From Clostridiaceae bacterium (GTDB lineage: Bacteria > Bacillota > Clostridia > Saccharofermentanales > DTU023), in NCBI GenBank assembly GCA_012798865.1, contig JAAZMK010000005.1:1-61929 (forward strand): 61,929 nucleotides of DNA, in the 5' to 3' direction. Shown one piece after another: positions 16,746-26,941 of this stretch. The notes beneath the pieces are model-generated. The model worked only from the letters and a program-made list of their open reading frames with translations, ran no database searches and was not told the origin of the DNA. Position numbers and translations under genes: made by a program. Position 1 is the first letter of the stretch. Each line of letters starts with the position of its first letter.

Positions 16746-18836
16746 CTAATGGTCAATCATTTGAAGCAACATGTAAACTGCCGGTCGATTGATCTCAATC
16801 CACCCGTCGTCGCCGTGCTGCTTTTCGAGTTTTTTTGCCTGATCCAGCCACGCATCAAAATATTCCTGCCCTGTTTCTGCTTCAAGTTTAAGCGCAGATT
16901 CCGGCGCCAGTTCATCCAAGATGATTCGCATGAGATGCCCTTTTAGTCCCGTCTGATCGCCGCGTAAGAATTCCGAGAAGATGTGTTGAAGCGTGCCGGC
17001 TTTGTCCGCCAACAATTGTTCATGTTCCTTCTTGTGTGCCTTCAGATAATCTCCCGGATTGGAGGAATCTTCAGGAGAAGACATGATGGTGTCAAACAAT
17101 GCGCTGATCATGGTATCGTAGGGCAAGGACCGGGAAACAAAGAACGTGCACTCTTCAATATCCGAATCCAAGACCTCCGCGAGCACAAACCACCCCGCCA
17201 TGTCGCAAGTGCCGGGGTAATAAGGATTGTTTGCCGGAACGACATCCATCATAAGGGTGGAGCCGTTAACGGTCACGTTCATAAGCTTAAACCTGTTAGA
17301 ACCGCTGACTGTTGTCACGTAGACGACCAACACCGTATGGTTGGCAAAGAAATCGTCATTATACGCGGCGGTTACCTCATTGAACGATGGCACTTCATCA
17401 TATCTGCCGCTAAACGACAGAACACCTTGGAACGTTGTCTTAAACTGTTCCAAGTCTGCCCTTGTATCAAACTTGTAGATCGGGTTATGCGGCGTCGAGT
17501 TGATTACAAATACGCCCGGATTCAAGCTCTCGGTCAAAATGCGGTCATCCTCCGTCCAACCTGCCCACGCCACATGTGAATTGGTCTCAATGAAGCGCGG
17601 TTCATTTTTCACGATTTTGATGGCATAGACCTTTTCCAACTGAGCAGGATAAGTTTCCAGTATGCCGCCATTGTACTCAATGACCACGGTATCGCCCACG
17701 TTCGGCACCGGGGATGCGGGCAGGAACTCCACAGGAACGAAGAAGCTGTCAGACGACGCCAGTTCCGCGGAGCCTTCAATCGGTTTTACCAACATGTTAC
17801 CGTTGTCGATGTCTGTAATGATCGCCGTCAGTGTCTTCGTAACAGCGTTCACATCGGTACGCGCAGCCGGCACTTCCCCCGAAGGACTTGACAGCGTCTT
17901 TTGGTTTGTTAAAAGGCATACTGCTAGGATCACACAGGCAACTACGGCGACGGCTATGATCCAAAAGGTCGGTTTCTTATAGTTCAATACGCCCTTCACC
18001 CTCTCCTTTATTCCCGTTTCGCCAAAAGCGAGCGGACAAGCGGTGATCCGCTTTTGCGGCAGACTGCAATCGAGAAGCGCCTGGGAGTACCTGACCATGC
18101 TTTCTTTGTCCATTTCCCGGATGACCTTTTCATCACAAGCCATTTCGATATCACGGCAAAGCAGTATATAGGCGACCCAGCACAACGGATTAAACCAGTA
18201 GATCGCCAGCAGAAGAAATCCGAGCGGTTTCCACCAATGGTCACGGCGCTGAATGTGCGCGCGCTCGTGGTGAATCACGCAGTCAAGCGTTTCCCCGGTT
18301 AGCGAGGAAGGCACATAGATCATCGGCTTGAACACGCCGAGGATAAAGGGCGCATGGATTTCATCGCACATCTTGATGTGATCCCCCAGAAGAATGGCGG
18401 TCGAAACCGTCCTTTTCAATCTTAAATAGCTTACCAAGGCATAGAGGAGCAAAGCGACAACTCCTGCGACCCATATGACCGCGACGAGAGGCAGGGCGAC
18501 CTGCAAGGGATTGCTGCTCACAACGGGAGCGGGCATTACTGAATCCGCAACGATCGGATTGACCGTATTCGTGACCGTTGTGATGCCTGAATGGTCGGCT
18601 GGGAACTGTGACAGAACAAGATCGGCAGGGATGGTCTCACGGCTTGAGATCAAGCTGAAGGCGCTTTCAATGGTAAACGGACAGACAAGCCGAATGGCGA
18701 CTAAAGCCCAAAGCAGACAGACTATCCATTTCGGCGCCTTCTTCAGCAGGGCGCGCGCCAGCACCACGGCGAGAATGAGCCAGCTTGCCGTGATGCTCAT
18801 ATTCAAGATCTTTAGAAATACTGCGCTCATGTTCAT
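16746..18836 (-). CDS. BlaR1/MecR1-like M56 peptidase signal transducer with a large non-PBP extracytoplasmic C-terminal region
   Basis: N-terminal TM helices and the HERAHIQRRDHWWK (HExxH) M56 motif. ATGA overlap with blaI. Confidence 0.8.
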   Translation of the reverse strand: MNMSAVFLKILNMSITASWLILAVVLARALLKKAPKWIVCLLWALVAIRLVCPFTIESAFSLISSRETIPADLVLSQFPADHSGITTVTNTVNPIVADSVMPAPVVSSNPLQVALPLVAVIWVAGVVALLLYALVSYLRLKRTVSTAILLGDHIKMCDEIHAPFILGVFKPMIYVPSSLTGETLDCVIHHERAHIQRRDHWWKPLGFLLLAIYWFNPLCWVAYILLCRDIEMACDEKVIREMDKESMVRYSQALLDCSLPQKRITACPLAFGETGIKERVKGVLNYKKPTFWIIAVAVVACVILAVCLLTNQKTLSSPSGEVPAARTDVNAVTKTLTAIITDIDNGNMLVKPIEGSAELASSDSFFVPVEFLPASPVPNVGDTVVIEYNGGILETYPAQLEKVYAIKIVKNEPRFIETNSHVAWAGWTEDDRILTESLNPGVFVINSTPHNPIYKFDTRADLEQFKTTFQGVLSFSGRYDEVPSFNEVTAAYNDDFFANHTVLVVYVTTVSGSNRFKLMNVTVNGSTLMMDVVPANNPYYPGTCDMAGWFVLAEVLDSDIEECTFFVSRSLPYDTMISALFDTIMSSPEDSSNPGDYLKAHKKEHEQLLADKAGTLQHIFSEFLRGDQTGLKGHLMRIILDELAPESALKLEAETGQEYFDAWLDQAKKLEKQHGDDGWIEINRPAVYMLLQMIDH

Positions 18837-19198
18837 TCCTCCTTCTTGAAGGTATCGATCATTCTTTGAATCTCATCCGCCTCTTGAACCGTCAGGTCAT
18901 TTCGGGAAATGAACGCTGAGACAAATGCAGGCAGAGAGCCTTGGTAGGAATCCTCGACAATCTGTTCGCTTTTCAGCGAATAGAATGCTTCGCGGGAGAT
19001 CAGGGAGGAAACGACGCCATCGACGTTTTGAAGCAGCCCTTTTTCACAGAGCTTGCGGAGCACCGTATAAGTCGTCGACTTTTTCCAGTTCAGTTCCTTC
19101 CTGCAAATCTTGACGAGTTCACCGGAACCGATCGGTTCATGTGCCCACACAATATCCGCGAACCGCTCCTGTACGGCACCAAGTTCAATGTCGATCAT
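18833..19198 (-). CDS. BlaI/MecI/CopY-family winged-helix repressor
   Basis: 121 aa. Typical N-terminal wHTH (WKKSTTYTVLRKLCEKGLL). Translationally coupled to the M56 gene. Confidence 0.85.
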   Translation of the reverse strand: MIDIELGAVQERFADIVWAHEPIGSGELVKICRKELNWKKSTTYTVLRKLCEKGLLQNVDGVVSSLISREAFYSLKSEQIVEDSYQGSLPAFVSAFISRNDLTVQEADEIQRMIDTFKKEE

Positions 19199-19991: not shown

Positions 19992-20288
19992 TCAGTCAGC
20001 TGGTTTATCCGCCACCATGGGGGGAGTAAAGCTATAGAAATACTCCCGTTCATCAAACCGGCTAACGGGACGTATGGGTGTGCGACCAAATAAGTAGTCG
20101 ATAGAAACTTGGAAATATTCTGCGATTTTTATAAGCATACAGTAATCGGGCTGGCGTTCGCCGCGCTCATATTTAGAAATTGTCTGTCTGGTGACATTGA
20201 GATCAACGGCAATGTCATCTTGCCGAAGTCTCTTCTCTTTCCGCAACTCTCTGAGACGATCCCCGAATATTTGGCGCTGTTCATCCAT
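19992..20288 (-). CDS. XRE-family helix-turn-helix transcriptional regulator
   Basis: FGDRLRELRKEKRLRQDDIAVDLNVTRQTISKYERGERQPD is a classic HTH_3 domain. Start taken at the MDEQRQ methionine. Confidence 0.8.
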   Translation of the reverse strand: MDEQRQIFGDRLRELRKEKRLRQDDIAVDLNVTRQTISKYERGERQPDYCMLIKIAEYFQVSIDYLFGRTPIRPVSRFDEREYFYSFTPPMVADKPAD

Positions 20289-20528
20289 ACGTATGTGAAG
20301 TATGAATTGAGACTGGAAAATGCTCAAGAAAATGCATTGAATATGCTACAAACTGGCGCATTTGGCGCCTATGGACGGCAACTTGTCAAAGATGGGCTTT
20401 TGTGCAATTATTAAGCGTGCGGGTGCGATATGTTGGCTTCTCGGAGTGCGGACGCCCTTTAATTAAGGCAAAAGTATTAAATTCGCACCGACTATTGCAC
20501 TTATAGTGAGAAACGATCCGCGACAAAT

Positions 20529-22150: not shown

Positions 22151-22406
22151 TCATGAATATTCCGACCTAAGTTGACCGTTCCGCACGTAGAGAGCCATCA
22201 AATTGAACTTTTTAGAGCGAGACCTTCAGCGGACGAGTTTTCCAGACGAACAGATCAGATAATTCTTCCGGACTAAGCAATTACAACGAAATCAGAACAA
22301 AGTCTAGCGTCCTTATTCGGTTATCTGTGTCAAAAGCGATCTTAATGATGAGAGCGTTTCCGACCAGATATGCTTCCAGTTTGGAGGACATCTTCATCTA
22401 CTTTTC

Positions 22407-22820
22407 TTATTTAGTTGTAGTCGATTCATCTTCTTCGCGGATATTACTCTCATCAAATAACAAATTAAGATTAACGGTGGGTATAAGCAAAGGTTTCGAC
22501 CCGTCTGAAGCTGACACAAAAGAGAGAATGCTCCTTGCGTACGGTAGCAAGAGGGATGTGGCAATGATTTGCAGATCAGTATCGCGATGCTGCTCATTGA
22601 AATCTTCTGTCAGTAAAAAAATGCCGGATATCACGATTTTCGCTTCAACTGAACCGGTAAGCTCAGCATCCAAAATAACACGCTTTATCTCGGGATTCTC
22701 CATGTTATCTTGGCTCGTGATCGTTAGCGAGAGATTATTGTCACCCTCAAATGCCTCAATCTTCTTATAAGCTAATTCGTGCAATTCATAACTTTTAAAT
22801 TCAACAATACCTTCAGCCAT
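22407..22820 (-). CDS. SecB-like chaperone (137 aa), third gene of the hicAB operon
   Basis: GIFLL...LLLPYARSILSFVSASDGSKPLLIPTVNLNLLF aligns with the E. coli SecB block GIFSI...[33 protein letters not shown]. GGAG lies 5 nt upstream of ATG 22820, 13 nt after the hicB stop. Confidence 0.8.
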   Translation of the reverse strand: MAEGIVEFKSYELHELAYKKIEAFEGDNNLSLTITSQDNMENPEIKRVILDAELTGSVEAKIVISGIFLLTEDFNEQHRDTDLQIIATSLLLPYARSILSFVSASDGSKPLLIPTVNLNLLFDESNIREEDESTTTK

Positions 22821-22833
22821 AATGACTCCATAA

Positions 22834-23292
22834 CTATGCCGTTTGGGGGAACTTGGTGACCTTTTGTTTGCCATCGCTCCAGTGATTTTCAATTTCTGTC
22901 GGCACAGGAGACGGCATAGAGATTGACAAGTTATATACTGTCTGTGCTCGTCTCTCACCTAAGCCTTCAGCAAGAATACTGGTACAAAGGGAATTGAGAC
23001 TAACTCCCTCTTGTTCAGCTTTAAGAGCCAAATTACGATGTAATGATTTTGGGATTCTAAGATTGAAACGGCCACTGTATTCAGACGAATCCAAGCTCTT
23101 TGACGCAGGAATAGTTCTACCCATTTCTTGGGCAGCTTCAATCCAAACAGCTTTGTTTAACATTCCTTCATCGACAGCTTCCTGGAACGTATCACCAACT
23201 CCAATACATCCCTTGAGTTCAGGGAACTCACAAATCCACTGTTCTGTTCCGTCTTCTTCAATGATCGGATAAACCAAAAATGCATGTTCCAT
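22834..23292 (-). CDS. hicB: HicB-family antitoxin (HicB fold + RHH DNA-binding domain) with a C-terminal extension of about 40 aa
   Basis: WICEFPELKGCIGVGDTFQEAV is the HicB N-domain. SGRFNLRIPKSLHRNLALKAEQEGVSLNS is the RHH. GGAGGAG lies upstream of the ATG. Confidence 0.9.
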   Translation of the reverse strand: MEHAFLVYPIIEEDGTEQWICEFPELKGCIGVGDTFQEAVDEGMLNKAVWIEAAQEMGRTIPASKSLDSSEYSGRFNLRIPKSLHRNLALKAEQEGVSLNSLCTSILAEGLGERRAQTVYNLSISMPSPVPTEIENHWSDGKQKVTKFPQTA

Positions 23293-23294
23293 TT

Positions 23295-23582
23295 CTACTC
23301 CTCCTCTGGCATATTAAGCTCATCAACCGCTTCTAAGGCCTTGCGTATATACGCTCGCTTCACTCCGTCAGACGTTCCATGCGGTTTAACCACGGAAACA
23401 ATTCCATCATATTGAGGATGACAAAAGACCCTATGACTTCCTCCGGAAGAGGGCCTCAATTCAAATCCATAATAATCCATGAATTTTACTAACTCGTTAA
23501 AACGTATATCGTTTGGTGTTGGTTTTTGGCGGATTCGAGCTTCCAGTTTCTCAATGCTAGTAATATTTATCACCTTTCTCAT
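23295..23582 (-). CDS. hicA: HicA-family mRNA interferase toxin
   Basis: FNELVKFMDYYGFELRPSSGGSHRVFCHP...VVKPHG..D.VKRAYIRKALE fits the HicA/YcfA pattern. AGGTGG lies 7 nt upstream of the ATG. 2-nt gap to hicB. Confidence 0.85.
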   Translation of the reverse strand: MRKVINITSIEKLEARIRQKPTPNDIRFNELVKFMDYYGFELRPSSGGSHRVFCHPQYDGIVSVVKPHGTSDGVKRAYIRKALEAVDELNMPEEE

Positions 23583-24024
23583 AATAGTACCACCTGCGGT
23601 ACCATTGTCAACCCTCTGTTGCGTTTTTTTGAGAAATCACATGTTTGATTTTCTTTAGCTCTTTGCAAATTCTATCTATTAACTAAGTTTAGCCCAGCGA
23701 TACGATTGTTGCCAAATGACATTATTCCTGATCGATCGCAAAAACTTTGCTACACATTTTCATATAATAGCATTCTATTAATGGCTTGCTGAAACCTAGT
23801 TAGTGACGGTCTTTTAAAACAGTCCGTTGCGACGTATTTTTTGTTTTTCAGTCATGTTTAGCTTGCAATGTAACCCTTTGCTTTGGTTAGGGAGCGGTCT
23901 TGCTGGCATCCAGATTTTCACTAATGTAAACGTATTGTCTAATCGTTAATAGCAGCTTCAATTTTGCACCTCACGAACGTTCCCACTTATGAACTCACGT
24001 AAAAATCGATAATTCCCAATATGG

Positions 24025-24163: not shown

Positions 24164-26941
24164 ATGCTAACACAGGCACAACAGAGAAAAGCAGCAAGGG
24201 ATTTTGCCAAAAGATGGGAAGGCAGAGGCTACGAAAAGGGTGATTCAGATACCTTTTGGATAACTCTTTTAAGCGAGGTTTATGGCGTAAAAAATCCTGC
24301 CGACTTTATCATTTTTGAAGATAAAGTCATGCTGGATAATACAAGCTTTATCGACGGACGTATCCCGTCGACTCACGTCTTGATTGAGCAAAAATCAATC
24401 GATAAAGATTTGACAAAGCCATTCAAACAATCGGACGGTTCTCTTCTTTCACCATTTCAACAAGCAAAGCGCTATTCGGCTGAATTGCCTTATTCCGAGA
24501 GACCAAGATGGATCGTGATCTCCAACTTCAAAGAGTTCCATATTTTCGATATGGAAAAACCCGGCGGAGAGCCTGAGGTTGTTCTATTAAAGGACTTGGA
24601 AGAAGACTACTATCGACTGAATTTCCTCGTGGACGAGGGCGACCATTACATTAAACGGGCTACGGAAGTGTCGATCCAAGCGGGTGAGCTCGTGGGGATT
24701 CTCTATGATGCCTTGCTCAAACAATACAATGACCCAGACGATGAGGAAACGCAGAAAGATCTGAACATCCTTTGTGTCCGTTTAGTCTTTTGTTTTTATG
24801 CCGAAGATGCCGGTCTATTTGGTCGCCACAATATGTTTCATGATTATTTGGCAAAACACAAAGATTCAAATTCTATGTTTAGAGAAGCTCTGCTCAACCT
24901 TTTTAGAGTATTGGATCAAGAAGAGCATGAGCGTGATCCTTATGCATCAGAAGACTTGCTGGCTTTTCCTTACGTCAACGGCGGTCTTTTTGAAAAAGAT
25001 GACATCGTTATACCGAGAATCAATGAAGAAATCATCGACATCATCTTAGACAAAGCTTCCGCCGGATTTAATTGGTCTAATATCAGCCCAACTGTTTTTG
25101 GCGGCGTTTTCGAGTCTACTCTGAATCCGGAGACAAGAAGATCTGGAGGTATGCATTACACGTCCATTGAGAACATACACAAGGTGATTGATCCGCTCTT
25201 TATGGACGATCTCCGTGAAGAATTTAAAGAAATCAAGGCTCTAAAAACACTTACGATCAAGAAGAGGCGTTATGAAGAGTTGCAAGACAAGATAGCTTCT
25301 TTGGTTTTCTTGGATCCGGCGGCGGGAAGCGGAAATTTCCTGACTGAAACATACCTTTCGCTTCGCAAACTGGAAAATGAGATTCTGAAAGAGTTACACG
25401 GAAAACAGGTTTTGATTGGTGCTGTAAAAAACCCCATCAAAGTGTCCATCAGTCAGTTTTACGGTATCGAGATTAACGACTTCGCTGTATCTGTTGCTAG
25501 AACGGCTCTTTGGATAGCCGAATCGCAAATGATGAAAGAAACTGAAAACATTGTCAATATGGATCTTGATTTTCTGCCGTTGGAAACGTATCCGAATATT
25601 GTTGAAGGCAATGCTTTGAGGATGGACTGGGAAGAGGTCGTGCCTAAAGACGAACTAGATTACATTATGGGAAATCCTCCGTTTGTGGGTGCACGAATGA
25701 TGGACACCCCTCAAAAAGATGACATGTACGAAGTATTTGGCAACCTCAAAGGTGTAGGAAACCTTGATTTTGTATCCGCGTGGTATAAGAAAGCATGCGA
25801 TTACATAAATCAAACCAACATTCATTGTGCTTTTGTTTCTACGAACTCTATCGCTCAAGGAGAGCAGGTTGCGATACTCTGGCAACCTCTATTCGAAAAA
25901 TACGGGATTGTGATTAACTTTGCTTACCAAAGTTTTGTATGGGATAGCGAAGCGAGCATGAAGGCTCATGTACATGTTGTAATCATAGGATTTTCGCAAA
26001 AAGAAAGACACGAAAAATTTATTTACAGTTCCGGCTCAAGAAAGGAAAAAGCTAGTTACATAAATGCTTATTTAGTTGACGCACCCAATATCTTTATTTC
26101 ATCTAGAAGAACACCGTTATCCGATGTGAGCAGAATGAGTTATGGAAGTTTCGCATTGGACGATGGTGCATTTACGATTAGTGAAGAAGAGTACAAAGAA
26201 ATCTTAAAAAAGGAACCCTTTATAAAAAGTGTTTTGAAGCCTTTCATAGGAGCTAAGGAGTTTATCAATAAGATAAACAGATACTGTGTGTGGCTAGATT
26301 ACGGTGATATTGATCTAATAAAGAGAAGCAGGATATTAACGCAAAAAATCCAACATGTAAAAAATTGGAGAAGCCAAAGCACTAGAAAGAACACTTTGGA
26401 GGCAGCTAATACGCCGATGAAATTTGCTGAAATAAGACAACCGGATTCAGATTATTTGGGAGTTCCGGTTGTTAGCTCAGAGAATAGAAAATATATTCCA
26501 ATAGGATTTCTTTCAAAAGAGATTATTGCGAGCAATCAACTGTTCGTTGTTCCAGACGCTGAAATCTACCATTTTTCTATCTTGTCCTCAAATGTTCACA
26601 ATGCTTGGATGAGGATAGTCGGAGGAAGATTGAAAAGTGATTACCGCTATTCTGCGTCCATCGTTTACAACAACTTCCCGTGGATTATCTTGACTGATGA
26701 ACAAAAAAACGAACTAACTATGACAGGAAAAAGAATTCTCAGAGCAAGGGAGTTGTACCCAGATTGGTCTCTAGCCGATCTATATAATGAACTGACTATG
26801 CCGCCTGAATTACGCAAAGCGCATCAAGAAAACGATAAAGCTGTTATGAGTGCATACGGTTTTGACTGGCGAACAATGACTAGTGCAGAGTGTGTGGCAG
26901 AGCTCATGAAGATGTACCAAAATCTCGTGAAACAAGCCTAA
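24164..26941 (+). CDS. MmeI-family type IIL restriction-modification enzyme (single-chain endonuclease + N6-adenine methyltransferase + TRD)
   Basis: 925 aa. N-terminal D...LIEQK nuclease motif, LVFCFYAEDAGLF helical block, motif I FLDPAAGSGNFL, motif IV GNPPFVG, and C-terminal RYSASIVYNNFPW and LRKAHQENDKAV blocks collinear with MmeI as I recall it. Confidence 0.88.
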   Translation: MLTQAQQRKAARDFAKRWEGRGYEKGDSDTFWITLLSEVYGVKNPADFIIFEDKVMLDNTSFIDGRIPSTHVLIEQKSIDKDLTKPFKQSDGSLLSPFQQAKRYSAELPYSERPRWIVISNFKEFHIFDMEKPGGEPEVVLLKDLEEDYYRLNFLVDEGDHYIKRATEVSIQAGELVGILYDALLKQYNDPDDEETQKDLNILCVRLVFCFYAEDAGLFGRHNMFHDYLAKHKDSNSMFREALLNLFRVLDQEEHERDPYASEDLLAFPYVNGGLFEKDDIVIPRINEEIIDIILDKASAGFNWSNISPTVFGGVFESTLNPETRRSGGMHYTSIENIHKVIDPLFMDDLREEFKEIKALKTLTIKKRRYEELQDKIASLVFLDPAAGSGNFLTETYLSLRKLENEILKELHGKQVLIGAVKNPIKVSISQFYGIEINDFAVSVARTALWIAESQMMKETENIVNMDLDFLPLETYPNIVEGNALRMDWEEVVPKDELDYIMGNPPFVGARMMDTPQKDDMYEVFGNLKGVGNLDFVSAWYKKACDYINQTNIHCAFVSTNSIAQGEQVAILWQPLFEKYGIVINFAYQSFVWDSEASMKAHVHVVIIGFSQKERHEKFIYSSGSRKEKASYINAYLVDAPNIFISSRRTPLSDVSRMSYGSFALDDGAFTISEEEYKEILKKEPFIKSVLKPFIGAKEFINKINRYCVWLDYGDIDLIKRSRILTQKIQHVKNWRSQSTRKNTLEAANTPMKFAEIRQPDSDYLGVPVVSSENRKYIPIGFLSKEIIASNQLFVVPDAEIYHFSILSSNVHNAWMRIVGGRLKSDYRYSASIVYNNFPWIILTDEQKNELTMTGKRILRARELYPDWSLADLYNELTMPPELRKAHQENDKAVMSAYGFDWRTMTSAECVAELMKMYQNLVKQA

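Follow-up and report, generated by a model that had tools for sequence, protein, structure and literature searches.

The window, that is, the whole stretch of 61,929 nucleotides (nt) analysed here, from contig JAAZMK010000005.1 of a Clostridiaceae bacterium, contained three consecutive genes, hicA, hicB and a secB-like gene, which we interpret as a type II tripartite toxin-antitoxin-chaperone (TAC) operon with a HicAB pair. As a statement about architecture and mechanism class, we give this reading a probability of about 0.85. The TAC interpretation was first put forward in a preliminary description of this DNA, and the sequence and structure evidence examined agreed with it in gene order, HicAB family membership, SecB fold of the third product, a tail on the antitoxin and co-occurrence of tail and chaperone. 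Toxicity, chaperone addiction, autoregulation, the trigger and the biological role are what we infer. The genes of the operon and the antitoxin tail were located as follows, with lengths in amino acids (aa) and evidence that includes the open reading frame (ORF) listing:

23295..23582, minus strand: hicA toxin gene, 95 aa from ATG 23582 or 92 aa if it starts at GTG 23573 (ORF listing, Pfam)
22834..23292, minus strand: hicB antitoxin gene, 152 aa (ORF listing, Pfam)
22837..22947, minus strand: candidate chaperone-addiction (ChAD) tail of HicB, residues 116-152, QTVYNLSISMPSPVPTEIENHWSDGKQKVTKFPQTA (coil in the model, alignment)
22407..22820, minus strand: SecB-like chaperone gene, 137 aa (ORF listing, Pfam, AlphaFold2 and Foldseek)

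All three genes were co-oriented, and direct reading of the ORFs gave gaps of 2 nt between hicA and hicB and 13 nt between hicB and the secB-like gene. The coordinates, lengths and spacings in the preliminary description were exact. The separate Shine-Dalgarno sequence that it had claimed for each gene was found as a purine run 5-8 nt before each start codon (AGGTGG for hicA, GAGGAGGAG for hicB and TGGAG for the secB-like gene). All three ORFs were intact, and identical or near-identical proteins were encoded on metagenomic contigs (279 for HicA, 38 for HicB and 27 for the SecB-like protein). A 36-aa ORF at 22281-22391 (minus strand), starting 15 nt past the secB stop codon, has been annotated as a gene in public assemblies and had no family match.

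The product of hicA scored 34.5 bits against Pfam HicA_toxin (cutoff 27), in line with its earlier assignment to the HicA family. The dsRBD-like domain spanned residues 29-84 and followed an N-terminal extension of about 28 aa, a part that was kept in relatives (71% identity). A catalytic-type GSH motif was present at residues 48-50 (GGSH, 47-50). The protein aligned with the HicA structures 4c26, 6g26 and 4p78, with weak E-values against PDB sequences (0.5-1.2), and its GSH was in register with the GSH of HicA3 from Y. pestis and with the active-site region, in mutated form, of HicA from B. pseudomallei.

HicB was recognised over both of its domains. The scores were 48.6 bits against Pfam HicB, which covers the ribbon-helix-helix (RHH) part (cutoff 21), 35.8 bits against HicB_lk_antitox (cutoff 27) and 19.4 bits against Arc; HicB_lk_antitox matched residues 8-71, and HicB and Arc matched residues 70-110. 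An AlphaFold2 model, made from a 120-sequence HicB alignment, consisted of a toxin-binding-type N-domain (residues ~1-57, beta-beta-beta-alpha), a linker and an RHH domain (~76-115), both domains with a predicted local distance difference test score (pLDDT) of 85-95. A profile of HicB homologues matched the solved HicB structures 6u0i, 6hpb and 4p78. The three lines of evidence agreed on the HicB antitoxin with an RHH domain that had been claimed.

Beyond the RHH domain, residues 116-152 of HicB were modelled as coil (pLDDT 55-60), a predicted unstructured tail of about 37 aa. When aligned with tail-bearing HicBs, those from two-gene systems stopped right past the RHH motif AEGLGxR, at about residue 115, whereas the nine aligned tail-bearing proteins ran on for 35-46 residues. 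Tail length was bimodal among the 120 homologues: 75 had fewer than 10 residues past position 112 and 16 had 40-49. The tail diverged faster than the folded part (12-50% versus 47-75% identity), in agreement with a published account in which ChAD regions are highly variable (PMC5105189). Its aromatic residues in the window protein were Y119, W138 and F148, and the C-terminus was TA. In the nine tail-bearing HicBs the Trp corresponding to W138 was invariant (9/9), the aromatic positions were conserved as Y/F119, W138 and F/L148, a V-[YF]-N stretch was loosely conserved and most proteins ended in TA or AS.

Residues of these kinds have been described in characterised antitoxins. In Mycobacterium tuberculosis HigA1, chaperone binding is driven by W108, R110 and Y114 (PMC6377645). 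In Escherichia coli HigA, four spaced aromatic residues mediate chaperone recognition, and a C-terminal Val-Ala or Ala-Ala can serve as a ClpXP degron (bioRxiv 10.1101/2024.02.24.581848). By analogy, Y119, W138 and F148 of HicB together with its C-terminal Thr-Ala might fit this pattern of aromatic residues and degron. As candidate contacts of the tail with a chaperone pocket, the conserved aromatic positions are only suggestive. A different, Pro/Tyr-rich tail of 67 aa was seen in a 175-aa HicB homologue at locus L030 (2001-3195). The gene after this homologue overlaps it, encodes 224 aa of no known family and is not SecB-like; its product may be another kind of accessory partner for a HicB with a tail.

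The 137-aa product of the third gene belongs, as judged from its sequence, to the SecB superfamily and is not a housekeeping export SecB. Pfam SecB matched residues 61-125 only, the C-terminal half of the protein, with 28.7 bits (cutoff 26). The AlphaFold2 model (pLDDT 80, predicted TM-score 0.72) had a sheet of four strands, two helices of which the first is long, and a C-terminus that is acidic and disordered. When the model was compared with the PDB using Foldseek, each of the 23 matches with E<1e-3 was to SecB, to Rv1957 or to a streptococcal protein sharing this fold; query TM-scores were ~0.5-0.7. They comprised, with TM up to 0.70, the SecB proteins of E. coli and Haemophilus influenzae (1qyn, 1fx3), Rv1957 of M. 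tuberculosis with a bound ChAD peptide (5mtw; TM 0.59-0.64 at ~10-12% sequence identity) and two streptococcal proteins of unknown function (2o2a, 2hng). The next matches were unrelated hot-dog folds (E>0.02). The AlphaFold and Foldseek check named in the preliminary description thus returned a SecB fold, and the refuting condition given there, a third protein of another fold, did not apply. The SecB signature block that it had recognised by comparison with E. coli SecB was reproduced in a profile search (GiF...illPYaR.SilSfvs versus GIFSIA...): for a profile of 19 SecB-like relatives, the best PDB sequence matches were E. coli and H. influenzae SecB (E ~2e-3). A PDB search with the single sequence gave noise only, and the profile and fold searches were needed.

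The protein shares with the export SecB of E. coli and H. influenzae the fold and the helix-alpha1 motif (G-I-F ... P-Y-A-R). In contrast to them, it is shorter and is encoded in a toxin-antitoxin operon, and SecB-dependent export has not been described in the lineage of the host (PMC3581621). NCBIfam SecB equivalog models matched the same region far below their cutoffs (14-35 bits against 103-244; the best scored 34.6 against 143, and TIGR00809 scored 23.5 against 102.8). With scores so far under the cutoffs, identity with a housekeeping export SecB was rejected. The PADLOC model PD-T4-9_C, which represents the CmdC chaperone, matched residues 9-125 (1.7e-7), and the protein grouped with small SecB-like proteins of Firmicutes that have the motif PY[AV]RSI[LI]S[FM]. 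This chaperone family is large: the representative clusters recovered in a full-library profile search with the clade numbered 2,596 at E<=1e-3, and at the stricter E<=1e-10 there were 455. Searches of phage and plasmid collections detected only distant SecB-like matches (~27% identity), in a Latilactobacillus phage and in Enterococcus plasmids. One 276-aa protein (P0046) had an unassigned N-terminal region of 150 aa fused to a SecB-like domain (153-275) and could be either an antitoxin-chaperone fusion or a merge made in gene calling.

A profile scan of all fetched loci detected the order hicA-hicB-secB, with short gaps, in about eight diverged lineages. Since it recurs at this distance, the arrangement is not due to chance. 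The SecB-like proteins of the recurring operons had 30-60% mutual identity. The named lineages were metagenome-assembled genomes (MAGs) labelled Mageeibacillus, Clostridiales or Bacillota, and the closest match among species representative genomes was a Mageeibacillus MAG (59% identity). The presence of the chaperone gene followed that of the antitoxin tail. A SecB-like gene lay 8-32 nt downstream of all six HicBs with a tail of about 40 aa (the window, L001, L004, L026, L027 and L029) and downstream of none of the three tail-less HicBs, two of which are close relatives (73% and 68% identity).

The relative with 73% identity (L023, 1-494) ended at residue 122, and the ~1 kb downstream of it held neither a SecB-like gene nor a detectable remnant; from its sequence it looks like a natural derivative without tail and chaperone. 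In MAG GCA_902489315.1 and related contigs (L004-L007; 3495-5411 in L004) a second hicAB pair without a chaperone (60 and 128 aa) lay immediately upstream of hicA-hicB-secB.

More distant members of the same chaperone clade were found in Streptococcus, Ligilactobacillus and Companilactobacillus, where the gene follows a CmdT-like gene (PADLOC PD-T4-9_A, 2e-6). In Lactobacillales loci (L008 3160-4393; L019-L022; L036-L040; L043-L045) a 102-aa gene usually lay between the CmdT-like and SecB-like genes. By their gene content, the loci of the three genera resemble CmdTAC-type operons whose chaperones fall in one clade with those of the Clostridia HicAB TACs. With both HicAB and CmdT-like neighbours found, the clade is paired with at least two different toxin-antitoxin units.

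The chaperone of CmdTAC, or PD-T4-9, from E. coli ECOR22 (PMC9519451, PMC11618068) is the one represented by the PADLOC model that matched the window's protein, and the nearest non-HicAB relatives of the latter sit in operons of CmdT-like, CmdA-like and SecB-like genes. The toxin and antitoxin of CmdTAC are an ADP-ribosyltransferase and CmdA, whereas those of the window are HicA and HicB, neither with a PADLOC match. Since only the chaperone matches, identity of the window operon with CmdTAC/PD-T4-9 was rejected.

The closest characterised counterpart is the TAC of Methylomonas methanica MC09 (Mmet-TAC; Metme_2813/2812 and chaperone), which agrees with the window in its toxin and antitoxin families and in gene order. 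Mmet HicB has 159 aa and the window HicB 152, and in both an extension of about 40 aa follows the RHH domain. The cloned Mmet hicAB fragment of 773 nt implies a long-form HicA of about 95 aa, as in the window. The HicB tails of M. methanica and Nitrosococcus also contain Trp, according to the machine-read text of Supplementary Fig. 1 in PMC5105189. The hosts differ: M. methanica, a gammaproteobacterium, depends on SecB for export as well, whereas the host of the window is a member of Clostridia and presumed monoderm. Mmet-TAC has been assayed in E. coli, while the window operon is known from sequence alone.

The M. tuberculosis TAC (HigB1-HigA1-Rv1957) is likewise a tripartite operon of toxin, antitoxin and SecB-like protein, and its antitoxin has a disordered C-terminal ChAD. 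However, its toxin is a HigB of the RelE superfamily and not a HicA, its antitoxin is a helix-turn-helix (HTH) HigA and not an RHH HicB, and the two antitoxin tails have no sequence similarity. Ordinary two-gene HicAB systems share with the window the hicA-then-hicB order, a HicB with N-domain and RHH domain and an inverted repeat in the promoter; the window differs in the extra tail of HicB and in the third gene that follows.

Systems of this kind are well represented in the literature. Sala et al. 2013 (PMC3581621) catalogued 60 TAC and antitoxin-chaperone (AC) systems in seven phyla, with HigA, MqsA and HicB as canonical TAC antitoxin families and an RHH domain in every TAC HicB, and cited a TAC in the firmicute Caldicellulosiruptor. 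For M. methanica, Bordes et al. 2016 (PMC5105189) found that the HicAB-SecB TAC functions in E. coli. The C-terminus of its HicB (residues 119-159) confers chaperone dependence and can redirect chaperone specificity, and the authors aligned it with the HicB TAC antitoxins of Nitrosococcus and Pelobacter and the HigA TAC antitoxin of Alkaliphilus metalliredigens. The survey of 14 genetic contexts of HicA by Gerdes 2024 nowhere mentions SecB or chaperones. The preliminary description had considered HicAB-based TACs mostly predicted rather than studied, and had known of no study in Clostridia-like hosts. The second part stands as far as our literature searches reached: they turned up no work on a HicAB-type TAC in Clostridia. 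The first has to be narrowed, since HicAB TACs were catalogued in 2013 (PMC3581621) and the Mmet system was functional in 2016 (PMC5105189).

Upstream of hicA we identified a promoter-like site with a candidate operator inside it:

23584..23611, minus strand: candidate promoter TTGACA-N16-(TG)TACTAT, 10/12 match, with an extended -10 element
23603-23598 and 23591-23587, minus strand: candidate HicB operator inside the promoter, an inverted repeat of GGTACC and GGTAC

The scan for promoters and terminators gave no more sites than shuffled sequence did, and this site was retained only because it is conserved in the Mageeibacillus relative. There, a block of ~39 nt upstream of hicA (23573-23611; L001 6895-6942) was ~90% identical, compared with 68% for coding DNA. 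Four other lineage types had inverted repeats of their own 20-50 nt before hicA (L004/L034, L027, L029 and L033), and none with arms of at least 6 nt was found upstream of hicA in L018 and L026. The arrangement would fit autoregulation by the RHH antitoxin at the inverted repeat.

The remaining features concern the host and the surroundings of the operon. Near-identical housekeeping proteins carry the NCBI names of Saccharofermentanales, Clostridia or Clostridiaceae MAGs, which places the host, earlier described as Clostridia-like, in the order Saccharofermentanales. Contigs with matching sequence came largely from biogas fermenter metagenomes. The operon lay in a low-GC stretch of ~7 kb (~19.9 to 27.05 kb; GC ~0.41 versus ~0.52), together with the following genes:

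24164..26941, plus strand: MmeI-family type IIG restriction-modification enzyme, 925 aa, divergent neighbour outside the operon
19992-20327, minus strand: XRE-type HTH regulator, in the low-GC stretch along with tRNA-Val

The MmeI-type enzyme matched Pfam MmeI_N, MmeI_hel, MmeI_Mtase, MmeI_TRD and MmeI_C and PADLOC REase_MTase_IIG (1172 bits). The genes for tRNA-Phe, tRNA-Asp and tRNA-Val were located at 19.6-20.6 kb, and these three tRNAs were the only matches in an Rfam scan of the whole window. The setting reported previously, a tRNA island with a restriction-modification gene, was therefore recovered. The other small ORFs of the island had no Pfam or PADLOC matches. Just beyond tRNA-Phe and tRNA-Asp was a BlaI/BlaR1-type pair (16746-19198, minus strand), consisting of a Penicillinase_R repressor of 121 aa and a Peptidase_M56 sensor of 696 aa.

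Several observations weigh against the reading of the locus as a TAC operon. The co-occurrence of tail and chaperone is drawn from a small sample of 9 loci. No sequence similarity was detectable between the HicB tail and characterised ChADs, so the ChAD assignment rests on architecture and position; according to the literature, such a lack is usual for ChADs. The Pfam SecB match is marginal and covers half of the protein, so that the SecB fold is taken mainly from a predicted model of pLDDT 80. The scan detected no intrinsic terminator directly after secB, and the nearest terminator-like hairpin was ~390 nt downstream (22014-21994). The -10 element of the candidate promoter ends 2 nt before ATG 23582 and nearly abuts the annotated start of hicA, too near for this ATG to lie within a transcript from that promoter. 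In the Mageeibacillus relative an in-frame TGA stands just ahead of the GTG aligned with GTG 23573; the true start of the window hicA may thus be GTG 23573 and not ATG 23582, giving a protein of 92 aa from a near-leaderless transcript. At the level of the island, no phage-related genes, integrase or att repeats marking it were found, and when 19.4-27.4 kb was searched for direct repeats of att type or a duplicated tRNA 3' end, only one 22-nt pair at chance level came up. Presence/absence variation is often seen at defence islands. Here, every contig with an identical H+-PPase that reached far enough carried the island, and mobility of the island could therefore not be shown.

If the operon is a TAC, it would work as follows. 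HicA would act as a small ribosome-independent RNase, and HicB would bind and neutralise it through its N-terminal domain. HicB probably also represses the operon through its RHH domain at the inverted repeat inside the promoter. By analogy with characterised ChADs, the disordered tail of ~37 aa would make HicB aggregation-prone or protease-sensitive without the chaperone, and a tetrameric SecB-like chaperone would hold the tail by aromatic and beta-strand contacts. If other clients titrated the chaperone, HicB would disappear, and RNA cleavage by HicA would bring growth to a halt. The titrating clients could be newly made phage structural proteins or stress-unfolded proteins. The role would be phage defence, stabilisation of the island with the MmeI-type restriction enzyme, or both.

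Phage defence by TACs has been described, with the chaperone sensing tail or capsid proteins (Mets et al. 2024; CmdTAC paper, PMC11618068). We suggest tentatively, and with less than even confidence, that the operon is a working anti-phage abortive-infection system of Clostridia in which the SecB-like chaperone senses phage and HicA is the effector, the chaperone clade being re-used with HicAB in Clostridia and with CmdT-like ADP-ribosyltransferases in Lactobacillales. A TAC with a different main role, either addiction that stabilises the low-GC island and the MmeI-type gene, or stress response and persistence, is rather unlikely. Such a role would suit a compositionally foreign island beside a restriction-modification gene, and the presence of the island in every inspectable contig of the population fits stable maintenance. 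It would also accord with the catalogue of Sala et al., in which at least 75% of TAC/AC systems were inferred to be horizontally acquired and five were plasmid-borne, and with the description of the M. tuberculosis TAC as stress-responsive (PMC3581621). However, the two TACs with a demonstrated physiological role, E. coli HigBAC and CmdTAC, defend against phage with the chaperone as sensor, and a neighbouring restriction enzyme is a typical feature of defence islands too. Addiction and phage defence are not mutually exclusive, and sequence cannot separate them.

It is very improbable that the locus is an ordinary two-component hicAB adjoined by a functionally independent SecB-like gene, whether for a general or secretion chaperone or as a remnant of another system. 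SecB-family proteins are sporadic in Firmicutes and some have been reported as 'solitary' (PMC3581621), the Pfam SecB match is marginal, and those TAC chaperones that have been assayed to date are also able to stand in for E. coli SecB (PMC6377645), which makes a general role conceivable. However, the gene lies on the same strand as hicB at a distance of 13 nt, and the three-gene order is kept where the SecB-like proteins are only 30-60% identical. The extra HicB tail occurs only where a chaperone gene follows, and the protein scores far below the export-SecB equivalog cutoffs. Moreover, the Lactobacillales relatives examined, from the group with reported 'solitary' SecB proteins, sit in CmdTAC-like operons. 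That the module is decayed or inactive and no longer under selection is hardly credible: a clear terminator is missing and the hicA start codon and promoter geometry are ambiguous, but the three ORFs are intact, metagenomic contigs with identical or near-identical proteins number in the tens to hundreds, the catalytic motif has been kept and the upstream regulatory block is more conserved than coding DNA.

The TAC concept, one HicAB example and the phage-sensing mechanism are already published, and the locus opens no new question. TACs in Clostridia have been listed before, and the window operon is a further, ordinary example of described systems. Its analysis extends the TAC architecture to an uncultured Clostridia lineage abundant in biogas reactors, and HicAB-type TACs recur across several Clostridia and Bacillota MAGs. 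If the abortive-infection reading were true, the operon would be the first defensive TAC with HicA as its effector, and no TAC defence would have been described before it beyond Proteobacteria and Actinobacteria. The tail with its conserved Trp, the close HicBs without tail and chaperone and the sister clade of CmdT-coupled chaperones together form a compact natural set for the co-evolution of ChADs and their chaperones.

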